A DNA stretch of 64,000 nt. It comes from Escherichia coli. GTDB lineage: Bacteria; Pseudomonadota; Gammaproteobacteria; Enterobacterales; Enterobacteriaceae. The stretch is taken from NCBI RefSeq assembly GCF_044324785.1, contig NZ_CP172127.1. One strand, 5' to 3'. Every line of letters begins with the position of its first letter. The stretch's first letter is position 1. This document shows positions 26,431 through 31,634 of this stretch, piece after piece. The translations under genes were made by a program, and so were the position numbers. Under the pieces are notes generated by a model. It was not told the origin of the DNA and did not search any database. It saw nothing but the letters and a program-made list of their open reading frames with translations.

Positions 26431-27012
26431 ATGCGTCTGTGTGACCGAGATATTGAAGCCTGGCTTGATGAAGGCCGTTTGTCGATCAACCCACGTCCGC
26501 CAGTGGAGCGTATTAACGGCGCGACGGTGGATGTGCGCCTGGGCAATAAATTTCGTACCTTCCGTGGTCACACGGCAGCGTTTATCGATCTGAGCGGTCC
26601 CAAAGATGAAGTGAGCGCCGCGCTTGACCGCGTGATGAGCGATGAGATCGTACTCGATGAAAGCGAGGCGTTTTATCTTCACCCAGGAGAGCTGGCGCTG
26701 GCGGTGACGCTGGAGTCGGTGACGCTGCCAGCCGATCTGGTGGGATGGCTGGACGGTCGTTCCTCACTGGCGCGTCTGGGGCTGATGGTGCACGTCACCG
26801 CGCACCGTATCGATCCGGGCTGGTCTGGCTGTATTGTGCTGGAGTTCTACAACTCCGGTAAGCTGCCGCTGGCGCTGCGTCCGGGCATGTTAATTGGTGC
26901 GCTGAGCTTTGAGCCGCTTTCCGGCCCGGCGGCGCGACCTTACAACCGCCGTGAAGATGCGAAATATCGCAACCAGCAGGGCGCGGTAGCCAGCCGAATC
27001 GATAAAGACTAA
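26431..27012 (+). CDS. dcd: dCTP deaminase Dcd, 193 aa
   Basis: Translation [23 protein letters not shown]... recognised as Dcd. Confidence 0.95.
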
Positions 27013-27033: not shown

Positions 27034-28887
27034 ATGAGACGATTTCTGACGACGCTGATGATACTCCTGGTCGTGCTGGTGGCCGGGTTATCTGCGTTAG
27101 TGTTGCTGGTGAATCCGAATGATTTCCGCGACTATATGGTCAAGCAAGTTGCTGCACGTAGCGGTTATCAATTGCAGCTCGACGGGCCACTGCGTTGGCA
27201 CGTTTGGCCGCAGCTTAGTATCCTCTCCGGGCGAATGTCTCTCACTGCCCAGGGCGCGAGCCAGCCACTGGTTCGCGCAGACAACATGCGTCTGGACGTG
27301 GCGCTTTTACCACTGCTGAGTCATCAACTGAGCGTTAAGCAGGTGATGCTAAAAGGGGCAGTGATCCAACTGACGCCGCAGACGGAAGCGGTACGCAGTG
27401 AAGATGCCCCGGTTGCACCACGCGACAATACCTTGCCGGATCTGTCAGATGATCGCGGATGGTCGTTTGATATATCCAGTCTTAAGGTGGCGGACAGCGT
27501 GCTGGTGTTCCAGCATGAAGATGACGAGCAGGTGACAATCCGCAATATCCGCCTGCAAATGGAACAAGATCCCCAACATCGTGGCTCATTTGAGTTCTCC
27601 GGGCGGGTTAATCGCGATCAGCGCGATCTCACGATATCCCTTAACGGTACGGTAGATGCTTCTGATTATCCGCATGATTTAACGGCGGCTATTGAACAAA
27701 TTAACTGGCAGTTGCAGGGTGCAGATTTACCAAAACAAGGTATTCAGGGGCAGGGGAGTTTCCAGGCCCAGTGGCAGGAGTCACATAAACGCCTTTCATT
27801 TAACCAAATCAGTTTGACCGCCAATGACAGTACGCTGAGCGGGCAAGCACAGGTCACGCTGACAGAGAAACCGGAATGGCAGCTGAGGCTGCAATTCCCG
27901 CAACTGAATCTTGACAACCTCATCCCGCTTAAAGAAACAGCGAACGGTGAAAACGGTGCCGCGCAGCAGGGGCAGAGCCAATCCACGTTGCCGCGCCCGG
28001 TCATTTCTTCGCGTATTGATGAACCGGCCTATCAGGGATTGCAAGGCTTTACGGCTGATATTTTGTTGCAGGCCAGTAACGTGCGCTGGCGCGGAATGAA
28101 TTTTACAGATGTTGCCACGCAAATGACCAACAAATCGGGTCTGCTGGAAATTACTCAACTGCAGGGCAAACTTAACGGTGGGCAGGTTTCACTGCCGGGC
28201 ACGCTGGACGCGACATCAATAAATCCGCGGATAAACTTCCAGCCACGGCTGGAAAACGTTGAGATTGGTACCATTCTGAAGGCGTTTAACTATCCGATTT
28301 CGTTGACCGGAAAAATGTCACTGGCTGGTGATTTCTCCGGTGCTGACATAGATGCCGACGCATTCCGCCACAACTGGCAAGGACAGGCACATGTCGAAAT
28401 GACCGACACACGCATGGAAGGGATGAACTTCCAGCAGATGATTCAGCAAGCGGTAGAGCGTAATGGTGGTGATGTGAAGGCCGCTGAAAACTTCGATAAC
28501 GTGACGCGTCTTGACCGCTTTACCACCGATTTGACGTTGAAGGATGGCGTCGTGACGTTAAACGACATGCAAGGTCAATCGCCTGTGCTGGCGCTTACAG
28601 GGGAAGGTATGTTGAATCTGGCAGATCAAACCTGCGATACCCAGTTTGATATTCGGGTCGTGGGTGGCTGGAACGGGGAAAGCAAACTGATTGATTTCCT
28701 CAAAGAAACGCCAGTACCGCTGCGGGTTTATGGCAACTGGCAGCAACTTAATTACAGCCTGCAAGTGGATCAGTTACTGCGTAAACACTTACAGGACGAA
28801 GCGAAACGTCGCCTGAATGACTGGGCCGAGCGGAATAAAGATTCCCGCAATGGCAAAGATGTGAAGAAGTTGCTGGAGAAGATGTAA
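27034..28887 (+). CDS. asmA: outer membrane assembly protein AsmA, 617 aa
   Basis: N-terminal TM anchor MRRFLTTLMILLVVLVAGLSALVLL; length and sequence match AsmA. Confidence 0.93.
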   Translation: MRRFLTTLMILLVVLVAGLSALVLLVNPNDFRDYMVKQVAARSGYQLQLDGPLRWHVWPQLSILSGRMSLTAQGASQPLVRADNMRLDVALLPLLSHQLSVKQVMLKGAVIQLTPQTEAVRSEDAPVAPRDNTLPDLSDDRGWSFDISSLKVADSVLVFQHEDDEQVTIRNIRLQMEQDPQHRGSFEFSGRVNRDQRDLTISLNGTVDASDYPHDLTAAIEQINWQLQGADLPKQGIQGQGSFQAQWQESHKRLSFNQISLTANDSTLSGQAQVTLTEKPEWQLRLQFPQLNLDNLIPLKETANGENGAAQQGQSQSTLPRPVISSRIDEPAYQGLQGFTADILLQASNVRWRGMNFTDVATQMTNKSGLLEITQLQGKLNGGQVSLPGTLDATSINPRINFQPRLENVEIGTILKAFNYPISLTGKMSLAGDFSGADIDADAFRHNWQGQAHVEMTDTRMEGMNFQQMIQQAVERNGGDVKAAENFDNVTRLDRFTTDLTLKDGVVTLNDMQGQSPVLALTGEGMLNLADQTCDTQFDIRVVGGWNGESKLIDFLKETPVPLRVYGNWQQLNYSLQVDQLLRKHLQDEAKRRLNDWAERNKDSRNGKDVKKLLEKM

Positions 28888-28898
28888 GACAAGTTATG

Positions 28899-28934
28899 CA
28901 GATGGCGGCGTCAATTTGTCGCCATCTGTATTTA
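28899..28934. terminator. hairpin between convergent asmA and the higA-like gene (likely bidirectional terminator)
   Basis: CAGATGGCG-(loop)-CGCCATCTG inverted repeat followed by TATTTAT. Confidence 0.5.
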
Positions 28935-28939
28935 TAGTA

Positions 28940-29230
28940 CTAAGCAGCATGTGGATATTGAACTTCAATACGTTGAATATGCAATCCTGCATGAGCCATC
29001 ATGGTGATCAATTTATCGATACTAAAGATCTGGATCTTACCTCTGGCAAGTTCAGATATGCGAGGTTGAGTGACCCCTAAAGCAGACGCTGCCTGAGCCT
29101 GGCTAAACCCTTGTTGTTCAATCCAGTTATTAATGATCGTAACAAGTTCGGCACGGATCCGCATATTTTCCGCTTGTTCAGGGGTGTCACTCACCGCATC
29201 CCACACACTATCAAAGGTTTCAATTTTCAT
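28940..29230 (-). CDS. HigA-like HTH (XRE-family) antitoxin
   Basis: Translation from ATG 29230 (AGGAG SD) reads MKIETFDSVWDAVSDTPEQAENMRIRAEL...LGVTQPRISELARGK..., an antidote-type HTH protein. Sits directly downstream of, and overlaps, the toxin ORF. The track ORF begins at an upstream TTG. Confidence 0.7.
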   Translation of the reverse strand: MKIETFDSVWDAVSDTPEQAENMRIRAELVTIINNWIEQQGFSQAQAASALGVTQPRISELARGKIQIFSIDKLITMMAHAGLHIQRIEVQYPHAA

Positions 29231-29535
29231 TTTTCCGCTCCTGAACAAGTTCTTTATAGCGTCGTTTGGCTAAATCAATATCCGATTGACTGGTAGTCTG
29301 TGTTTTCTTTTGAAAACAATGCAATACGTAAACCGCTTCTTCAAATTTTGCGACATACATGACGCGATAGATCCCATCAGCATCGCGAGTACGAATCTCT
29401 CGCACACCAGGGCCGATAGTTGAAAAAGGTTTCCAGTCGTATGGGTTTAACCCTTGTTGGATCCTGTCGAGACGATTCTGGAAATGCGCGTAAATCGTCA
29501 AGACTGGTATCAAGAAAAGCCAGCTTTTTTCTCAT
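29220..29535 (-). pseudogene. HigB/Gp49-like (RelE/ParE superfamily) toxin gene, apparently frameshifted
   Basis: The toxin core (KPFSTIGPGVREIRTRDADGIYRVMYVAKFEEAVYVLHCFQKKTQ...) is in one frame with no ATG start. A well-signalled start (TATAAT, GGAG SD, ATG at 29535) opens a different frame encoding MRKKLAFLDTSLDDLRAFPESSRQ..., which stops at 29377. The two segments only join by a frame change near 29455-29480. Confidence 0.55.
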
Positions 29536-29609
29536 TACTCCATCCTTAGATTATACTAAATTTTGTATAAATCAAATGCGCAGTTTGAACCTGCGCATTT
29601 GATGTTTTA

Positions 29610-31193
29610 TCACACCTCGTACTCCATCTCGCCATCCTTACGCAGCGGAATAATTTGCACCTTCTGCACGCGATGGCTTTCCACCTGCAACGTTTTAAGC
29701 AAATAATCTCCCACCTGCACTTCTTCGCCAGGTTTTGGAATGCGCTGCAAATATTCCATCAATAGCCCGGCAATGGTGTGATATTCACGTTTCTCGTCCA
29801 GCGGCAGCGGCACATATTGCACCAGATCCTCCAGCGGCATATGACCATTCGCCGTCCAGGAACCGTCCGCATTCTTCTGAATATCATGGCGGGCGTCGAT
29901 CTCTTCCACTTCGTTCGGTAAGTTACCGGCAATGGTTTCTGTGACATCACTTAATGTCACAATCCCTTCCACCGAGCCAAACTCATCCACCACAAAAGCA
30001 AAGTGTGTGCGGGCATTACGGAACTGCTCCAGGGCAGGTAACAACGGCAAGGTTTCCGGGAACACCAGCGGCTGGCGAATCAACACCCGCAGGTTGAGCG
30101 GTTCGCCGCGCAGAGACTGTTGTAGCAGGTCGATAACGTGAACAACACCGAGCAAATCTTCCGCGTCGTCACCGTCGGTAACCACCAGCCGCGTATGCTG
30201 ATTTCGCTCCAGCAACTGGCGGATTTCCTCTTCCGGCGCGTTGAGATCGATATGCTCAATATCGTGGCGCGACGTCATAATGCTGCTGACGGTACGCTGG
30301 TTAAGATTAAGGACCCGCTCAATCATCCGCCGCTCCTGCGGATTAAAGATCTGCTGGTTACCATGATCCACCAGCATGGACGCGGTTTCGGCGTCCAGTT
30401 CCGCATCTTCTTTTTGCCCGCTAAGCAGGCGCATTACCGCTTCGGTAGTCCGCTGGCGCAGCGTCTGGTTAGCGGAAAGAAAACGTCGCCGGTTAAAGAT
30501 AGCCAACTGATTGAGCGCCTCGATCATCACCGAGAAACCAATGGCAGCGTACAGGTAGCCTTTCGGAATGACGAAGCCGAAACCTTCCGCCACCAGGCTA
30601 AAGCCAATCATCAACAGGAAGCTTAAGCAGAGAATAACGATGGTCGGGTGACTGTTAACAAATTGCGTTAACGGCTTGCTGGCCATCAACATCAGGCTAA
30701 TAGCGATAACCACGGCGGCCATCATGACCAGTAAATGGTCGACCATCCCGACGGCGGTAATCACCGAGTCGAGTGAGAAGATGGCGTCCAGTACCACAAT
30801 TTGTGTCACCACCCCCCAGAACTTCGCACCTTTGCGTTGTGTGGGGTTATTGCTGTCTTTCCCCTCCAGCCGTTCGTTCAGCTCCATCGTGGCTTTGAAC
30901 AGCAGGAAGAAACCACCAAACAGCATGATTAAGTCGCGGGCGCTAAAGGTAAACGAGCGGAAGCTGAACAGCGGTTGAGTCAGGGTGACCAGCCAGGAGA
31001 TAGACGCCAGCAGTAACAGGCGCATTAACATCGCCAGCAGCAGCCCGGTAACCCGTGCGCGGTCGCGCTGCTTCGGCGGTAGTTTTTCGGCGAGGATGGC
31101 AATAAAGACCAGGTTATCAATGCCGAGGACCAGTTCGATCACAATCAGCGTGATTAACCCGGCCCAGATAGACGGATCGGCAATCCATTCCAT
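29610..31193 (-). CDS. yegH: TerC-family membrane protein with CBS/CorC domains, YegH (527 aa from ATG 31193)
   Basis: Translation from the internal ATG reads [30 protein letters not shown]... (TerC), with a C-terminal CBS/transporter-associated domain. Confidence 0.88.
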
Positions 31194-31634
31194 AGTAAGT
31201 ACAAAACCTATTCGTTGTATGACAAATGTCACAATTCGATCATGGATAAATCGGGGCAAAAATGCAATGTTGCAGCACTATTTATCTCATATTATTTGAG
31301 GGTAATAACCTCACATTATCCCTGAATTAAAAGTGGTAATAATAAAACATTATTTAAGAAATATCGCATGTGGAGACACAGTATTAAATATTGTCAACCT
31401 AAAGAAACTCCTAAAAAACATATTGAATGACACTTAATATAATTCTTAAAAATAGCCAATTGCCGAATTGTTACCTTGCCTGCTATTCCGTTAGCTGTAA
31501 CACTTCCTCCTGCATTATTGGAGAGCCAATATTCAATTACCATAATGTCACCTTATATTCGGAAGTTAATTTCCGCAATAACCCTTTCTCATCAACGATT
31601 GTATGCAGAGAGGGTTTGAAAAATTGAGCTAAAT

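Follow-up and report, generated by a model that had tools for sequence, protein, structure and literature searches.

A Gp49/HTH_37 toxin-antitoxin cassette between asmA and yegH of Escherichia coli retains an intact antitoxin beside a frameshifted toxin gene

The gap between asmA and yegH on this Escherichia coli chromosome holds a type II toxin-antitoxin (TA) cassette that we regard, with high confidence, as a module in decay, its Gp49-type toxin having been killed by a slippage deletion and its XRE-type HTH antitoxin left in place. The window analysed here, a stretch of 64,000 nucleotides from contig NZ_CP172127.1 (assembly GCF_044324785.1), carries dcd, asmA, two small minus-strand ORFs, yegH and wza, in that order. 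Read from its sequence, the window is the site of an orphan antitoxin beside a toxin pseudogene, with no live TA pair. The features on which this reading is built are as follows.

26431-27012, plus strand: dcd
27034-28887, plus strand: asmA (stop codon 28885-28887)
28889-29608, no strand: the variable cassette, spanning from the asmA stop codon and a shared G (28888) to the base preceding the yegH stop codon
28896-28931, plus strand: left hairpin with a 15-bp stem, directly after asmA (from folding and an inverted repeat)
28940-29230, minus strand: antitoxin gene, 96 aa, intact (from Pfam, translation, allele comparison and PGAP annotation in other strains)
29220-29535, minus strand: toxin pseudogene, Gp49 family of the RelE-ParE superfamily, 316 nt against 339 nt in intact alleles
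29238-29242, minus strand: AGGAG, read as the Shine-Dalgarno sequence of the antitoxin gene, 7 nt before its ATG and within the toxin 3' end (from sequence)
29377-29535, minus strand: residual ORF from the native toxin start, 52 aa, with 24 native and 28 out-of-frame residues
29462-29471, minus strand: deletion junction, where one of two copies of the 10-bp direct repeat CTCGACAGGA is left (from alignment)
29550-29555, minus strand: TATAAT, a perfect match to the -10 hexamer that ends 14 nt before the toxin start codon, a possible -10 box
29552-29569, no strand: 18-bp palindrome TATAC-N8-GTATA, a candidate operator (inverted repeat, overlapping the -10-like box)
29571-29603, no strand: right hairpin with a 13-bp stem, between the yegH stop codon and the toxin promoter (from scan and folding)
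29610-31259, minus strand: yegH (stop codon 29610-29612; wza is next in order)

The antitoxin gene is where the original prediction had placed an XRE-type HTH ORF. Its 96-residue product, which contains LGVTQPRISELARGK, matches Pfam HTH_37 (PF13744) over residues 13-86 with 78.1 bits against a cut-off of 27 (E=4.5e-22), gives weaker matches to HTH_3 and HTH_31, and is identical to WP_000687872 of O157 and 042. The predicted overlap with the toxin 3' end is also present and amounts to 11 nt, measured between the antitoxin ATG at 29230 and the upstream stop codon, TGA at 29220-29222; the AGGAG motif ahead of this ATG would allow separate translation of the antitoxin. Modelled with AF2 (pLDDT 86.8), the protein is a helical HTH bundle, and its fold matches are XRE regulators (best PDB entries 2o38 and 2a6c), HipB, S. 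pneumoniae HigA and Mtb HigA2; a profile search additionally matched HigA 6af3_B (E=3.5e-4). Ahead of the bundle lies a conserved N-terminal segment, FDSVWDA, with F6, V9, D11, A12 and T16 conserved, which by analogy with related antitoxins may be the toxin-binding part. The allele of the most widespread deletion lineage, the ST540 type (L010:709-999), encodes an antitoxin with the private changes D15A, T16P and G82E, and G82 is invariant in the antitoxin family alignment. These substitutions may reflect relaxed constraint after toxin loss.

The toxin gene, which had been taken as working, is a frameshifted pseudogene. Alignment with the intact alleles of UTI89 and O157:H7 places the frame shift after codon 24. 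Intact alleles carry two copies of CTCGACAGGA, 13 bp apart, and the 23 bp missing from the window, CTCGACAGGAAATTGGCTATCAA, correspond to one repeat copy together with the 13-bp spacer. The native start, ATG 29535, is preceded by an AAGGA Shine-Dalgarno sequence, and because these 23 bp are missing, the ORF that it opens does not share the frame of the region matching Gp49. This 52-aa residual ORF gives no Pfam match. The 3' toxin frame matches Gp49 (PF05973) over profile positions 11-90 with 90.2 bits (cut-off 23.9, E=9.1e-26), and the intact 112-aa allele matches it over positions 1-90 with 105.8 bits (E=1.2e-30). In the AF2 model of the intact toxin (pLDDT 92.2), beta-1 spans residues 4-7, alpha-1 residues 11-16 and alpha-2 residues 20-34, with four more strands and a C-terminal helix beyond; the lesion falls within alpha-2. 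PGAP calls the same allele a 'frameshifted' RelE/ParE-family pseudogene in GN04275, O157 4276 and ST540, with the antitoxin intact each time. A functional type II TA module has both frames intact, and in the window the toxin frame is shifted.

The second toxin frame of the window is open for 97 aa from TTG 29513, and this ORF bears on whether the locus might still work as a toxin-first higBA module, with the toxin supplied by the 97-aa product or through ribosomal frameshifting and the antitoxin restraining it. The ORF keeps Gp49 positions 11-90 together with every conserved residue of the C-terminal part (the HCFQKK motif, R56, R65 and Y68), and the antitoxin is intact; some residual toxin activity is thus formally conceivable. 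However, no Shine-Dalgarno sequence precedes TTG 29513, and the product of this start would lack beta-1, alpha-1, most of alpha-2 and the invariant residues L15, F18, P19 and G27. Restoring the frame would require a +1 shift, no known frameshift signal was seen, and PGAP treats the window-type toxin allele as a pseudogene. We consider a working module at this locus very unlikely, and the loss of the toxin remains the preferred reading.

The lesion in the window can be set against an intact counterpart. In the complete-genome collection, the best match to the window over 20 kb reaches 98.1%. A look-up of genomes encoding exactly the AsmA protein of the window yielded a draft assembly (L024, GCA_958309045.1) that shows no SNP against the window along 7,854 bp and retains the 23 bp and an intact toxin. 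Since no SNP separates the window from this intact allele over 7.85 kb, the deletion in the window is very recent. The same identity would suit an assembly or sequencing artefact, in which the gap is spurious and the module truly intact. Yet the same junction occurs in 57 independently finished genomes of several lineages, and the clean loss of one repeat copy and the spacer is a signature of biological slippage, unlike a base-calling error; an artefact is hardly credible.

These 57 genomes were recovered among 5,426 complete E. coli genomes with a 57-nt junction query designed so that coverage of 80% or more is attainable only by deletion alleles. The identical junction was found in seven O157:H7 genomes, one genome of a UTI89/ATCC 11775 haplotype and 49 with the ST540-type allele. 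In a SNP matrix over ~1.7 kb, with the window included, the deletion lies on at least four haplotypes. Over this length, the O157 deletion allele equals the intact O157 allele but for the deletion and one private SNP, and the B2-type deletion allele equals UTI89 but for the deletion and one SNP, and two further haplotypes belong to the ST540 type and to the window, respectively. This distribution suggests recurrent slippage between the direct repeats as the most economical account of a deletion shared by several haplotypes. For the O157 and B2 haplotypes, the deletion could, strictly speaking, have been moved by a short recombination tract (260-500 bp or less) as an alternative to recurrence.

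A different loss affects the 042-type allele (~115 genomes), in which the 5' half of the toxin gene and its promoter are swapped for an unrelated element of ~390 bp. This hybrid, seen in E. coli 042 (L004:1786-2345) and GN03551 (L008), keeps an intact antitoxin and the last 168 nt of the toxin gene, and lacks the toxin promoter and the right hairpin. Its junction, with ...CATCGCGAG on one side and CGGCGGCACC... on the other, joins the remnant to the ~390-bp element of cassette-free strains.

Further toxin variants were observed within and outside E. coli. A 104-aa E. coli protein (P0015, on 2 contigs) shows, besides the 23-bp deletion, the loss of 1 nt from the AAACCC run that follows; the frame is restored (…SSRQDATRVNPYDW…), and the net effect is an in-frame loss of 8 codons within alpha-2. 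An 82-aa E. coli protein (P0040, on 326 contigs) belongs to a more divergent toxin allele (93%); it ends after …VLHCF and is without the conserved C-terminal 30 residues. In Photorhabdus luminescens (L012:3882-4001) and in two further distant species representatives (L019 and L021), the toxin gene before the homologous antitoxin seems to be truncated or interrupted by stop codons in a crude ORF check. The sequences hint that decay of the toxin with the antitoxin kept is common in the Gp49/HTH_37 family.

Retention of the antitoxin invites the question of whether it has been selected. It could have been domesticated as an anti-addiction or immunity factor against the Gp49 toxins of plasmids and phages, or as a stand-alone regulator, with loss of the toxin favoured. 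Such a role would suit the repeated loss of the toxin, which came about through the 23-bp deletion on four haplotypes and through 5' truncation in the 042 type (~115 genomes), with the antitoxin ORF intact in all examples examined. Plasmids commonly carry Gp49 toxins (637 records, of which 303 are conjugative), prophages carry them too, and toxin and antitoxin both have strong PHROG families. Orphan antitoxins are plentiful in E. coli, where anti-addiction and regulatory roles have been proposed for them (PMC10790755). However, the closest true plasmid toxins are only ~74% identical and come from Erwinia and Pantoea, and the near-identical 'plasmid' matches are chromosomal segments. Intactness of the antitoxin in the window requires no selection, given how recent its deletion is (0 SNPs over 7.85 kb), and the three private changes of the ST540-type antitoxin, which include the invariant G82, look more like relaxed constraint. 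A regulator acting elsewhere also finds little to bind nearby, as the operator motif has no second copy within the 64-kb window. Domestication of the antitoxin is therefore unlikely in our judgement. We give a similarly low standing, as quite improbable, to the idea that the repeats form a built-in hotspot that kills the toxin again and again, with selection keeping the antitoxin as a trans-acting immunity factor or a regulator acting through TATAC-N8-GTATA. If this were true, the locus would be domesticated and not simply decaying. We retain decay of the module as the preferred reading.

Plasmid copies of the module were considered as evidence of mobility or as an anti-addiction target, and were set aside on finding that the near-identical matches are chromosomal asmA-dcd-udk segments. 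Three E. coli 'plasmid' records in PLSDB (NZ_CP083887.1, NZ_CP114132.1 and CP137936.1) carry a toxin that is at least 99% identical. The first of these (43 kb) is such a chromosomal segment, and for the other two (365 and 439 kb) a chromosomal origin, through mislabelling or excision, is likewise probable.

Upstream of the toxin gene, the palindrome TATAC-N8-GTATA is the sole match to this motif in the 64-kb window, where 0.02 would be expected. A single copy of the motif precedes the homologous toxin gene in each of four other loci (L014, L017, L018 and L023), which come from a plasmid of Pseudomonas cerasi, two Nocardia species and a Chryseobacterium and together represent three phyla. This recurrence upstream of homologous pairs makes it a likely operator. 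Conservation of the motif and the behaviour of characterised relatives suggest that an antitoxin dimer binds the palindrome and autorepresses the operon. A. baumannii HigA2, from a toxin-first module, autorepresses its own promoter with the toxin as corepressor (PMC5906591), and ATATCAC-N6-GTGATAT is the site bound by Mtb HigA2, whose partner is a Gp49-type toxin (PMC11205783). The E. coli candidate is palindromic like the Mtb site; however, its half-site is TATAC, compared with ATCAC in Mtb.

The promoter is less clearly marked. A sigma-70 promoter scan of the minus strand reported nothing, and no canonical -35 was found for the TATAAT box, with TTGATT just 14 nt off. The hexamer is thus a possible -10 of the toxin gene, a weak assignment that would imply a very short leader. 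In the Pseudomonas plasmid (L014:3622-3650) and Nocardia (L017:3480-3510) loci, a -10-like box lies inside the palindrome, 6 nt from the toxin start. This spacing suggests a leaderless toxin mRNA in these homologues. A leaderless mRNA is a possible way to hold translation of the toxin below that of the antitoxin in toxin-first modules.

The two hairpins said to bracket the module are both real and strong (z about -6.8), with boundaries ~3 nt from those first given. The left hairpin folds at -24.7 kcal/mol on the plus strand (z -6.77), and its position suggests that it serves as the asmA terminator; with an interrupted U-tract, it escaped the terminator scan. It had been described as a bidirectional terminator, a description that the minus strand does not bear out, since the fold there is weaker (-15.5 kcal/mol, z -3.13), has no U-tract and was likewise unflagged. 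The right hairpin folds at -20.6 kcal/mol on the minus strand (z -6.8) and at -19.6 kcal/mol on the plus strand (z -5.6), where it passes the terminator scan with the tail GTTTTAT. It is terminator-like on both strands and, judged by its position, looks like the yegH terminator.

The whole stop-to-stop region between asmA and yegH is allelic, and other E. coli carry unrelated sequence there. The limits of the cassette were drawn from side-by-side intergenic sequences of seven allele types, the SNP matrix and K-12, and the allele-type comparison places both hairpins inside the exchangeable unit. About 910 of the 5,426 complete E. coli genomes carry the cassette, and ~793 of these carriers have it at full length. 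In K-12 MG1655 the gap measures 273 bp with REP, and there is no homologue of either protein. The K-12-type allele consists of a REP element and an element of ~200 bp, the THO-003-type allele pairs a REP element with an element of ~390 bp, and the ATCC 25922 allele is hardly more than one REP element. The comparison across E. coli that had been proposed as a check thus agrees with the original prediction, in that K-12 is among the strains without the two ORFs. Of the further claim that the cassette was independently acquired, the presence or absence of a discrete unit stands, whereas acquisition is only one reading of it: gain and loss would both produce this pattern, and no mobility genes and no target-site repeats or duplications were found at the cassette. 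In the SNP matrix, the K-12-like asmA haplotype of the ST540 type reaches the asmA stop codon, a pattern consistent with spread of the cassette via homologous recombination in the core genes on either side. In the species-representative scan (one genome per species), no representative of other Escherichia or of Salmonella came up.

SNP density among E. coli haplotypes is very high at the asmA 3' end (window positions 28584-28800), with ~30 differences in ~300 bp between the ST540 type and the window. Such density is consistent with recombination breakpoints beside the cassette. An Rfam scan of the cassette returned nothing meaningful, its sole match being STnc40 (E=0.99). Outside the window, the alternative intergenic allele of the THO-003 and 042 types includes a sub-threshold match to Rfam TwoAYGGAY (31.5 bits against a gathering score of 43, E=0.06; L006:695-838 and L004:2100-2243, both on the minus strand). 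This sequence forms two hairpins with the loops ATGGAT and ATGGAC, and the shorter K-12 version is without the piece. A known anti-phage defence system was also considered and dropped, as PADLOC models gave only weak matches (PDC-M64C for the HTH protein, 6.2e-5; NsnC for the toxin, 1.4e-3). Our literature search for this locus and its RefSeq protein accessions found no paper.

The toxin belongs to a large family, with 6,707 matches at E<=1e-5 and PF05973 in all 120 of the matches listed. The best PDB matches of the intact toxin model are Mtb HigB1 (7nbu/7awk, TM 0.67) and S. pneumoniae HigB (6af4); RelE, HigB2, ParE2 and YafQ rank lower, and the predicted fold is of the RelE/BECR type. The toxin and antitoxin profiles match the two chains of one solved pair, S. 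pneumoniae HigBA (6af3), and the toxin-first order is kept in distant loci (L013, L014, L016, L017, L019 and L021). The pair had been called a typical toxin-first higBA, and as to layout the name is apt, with an XRE-HTH gene downstream of a RelE-superfamily gene. The classical families do not fit: the antitoxin scores 16.3 bits against a cut-off of 47.7 with the NCBIfam HigA equivalog model (TIGR02607, antidote_HigA), and the classical HigB Pfam families (PF05015 and PF09907) match neither the window ORF at E<=0.1 nor the intact allele at E<=0.01. By these profile matches, the pair is a member of the Gp49/HTH_37 branch, higBA-like in its working and outside the strict HigB or HigA families.

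Comparison with known systems further places the module. The S. pneumoniae HigBA and A. baumannii HigBA1/2 modules have in common with the E. coli pair a Gp49 toxin domain, toxin-first order and an HTH antitoxin downstream. Mtb HigB1 (Rv1955), HigBA2 (Rv2022c-Rv2021c) and HigBA3, as well as Tad-Ata of Paracoccus plasmids, are further Gp49/XRE modules. In contrast to the solved Gp49 members, to which it has only ~20% sequence identity, the E. coli pair is known from sequence alone; unlike the Mtb TAC system, it has no SecB-like chaperone. Classical HigBA modules (P. vulgaris Rts1, K-12 YgjN-YgjM, V. cholerae HigBA-1/-2) are alike in having toxin-first order, a RelE-superfamily toxin and an autoregulating XRE-HTH antitoxin. 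They differ in family, as HigB belongs to PF05015 or PF09907 and V. cholerae HigB2 to PF06296, none of which is matched here. Gp49 toxins are described as ribosome-dependent mRNases in toxin/antitoxin gene order, and the same source places V. cholerae HigB2 in Pfam RelE, PF06296 (PMC11980606). On that assignment, and as HigB2 is only a mid-ranking fold match, V. cholerae HigB2/HigA2 was rejected as the family prototype. The orphan antitoxins and decaying TA loci described in E. coli and Klebsiella likewise show an intact antitoxin, a broken or missing toxin and variation between lineages (PMC10790755, PMC7192599). In contrast to those loci, the lesion described here is defined to the base, lies on several haplotypes and has an identified intact progenitor allele.

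We propose the following account of the locus. The cassette fills the asmA-yegH gap and supplies terminator-like hairpins for both flanking genes. The intact 112-aa toxin, by analogy with its family, would be a RelE-fold, ribosome-dependent mRNA nuclease, which the antitoxin would neutralise; the antitoxin dimer would also repress the operon at TATAC-N8-GTATA. Loss of 23 bp between the 10-bp repeats, typical of a replication-slippage or microhomology event, has shifted the frame after codon 24. The remaining antitoxin, with its own AGGAG, is probably still expressed and self-repressing beside a dead toxin.

This is a known kind of module, which RefSeq already annotates, pseudogene state included, and the locus leaves the current understanding of TA biology unchanged. 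For annotation, it means that the window should be read as an orphan antitoxin with a toxin pseudogene, of the Gp49/HTH_37 branch rather than classical HigBA. The locus also provides a base-resolved example of chromosomal TA decay, in which several haplotypes bear the identical slippage deletion, the 042 type shows another kind of toxin truncation, and the antitoxins are retained. Additionally, for an antitoxin family that is large and has received little study, the conserved TATAC-N8-GTATA motif predicts an operator in a form open to direct testing.
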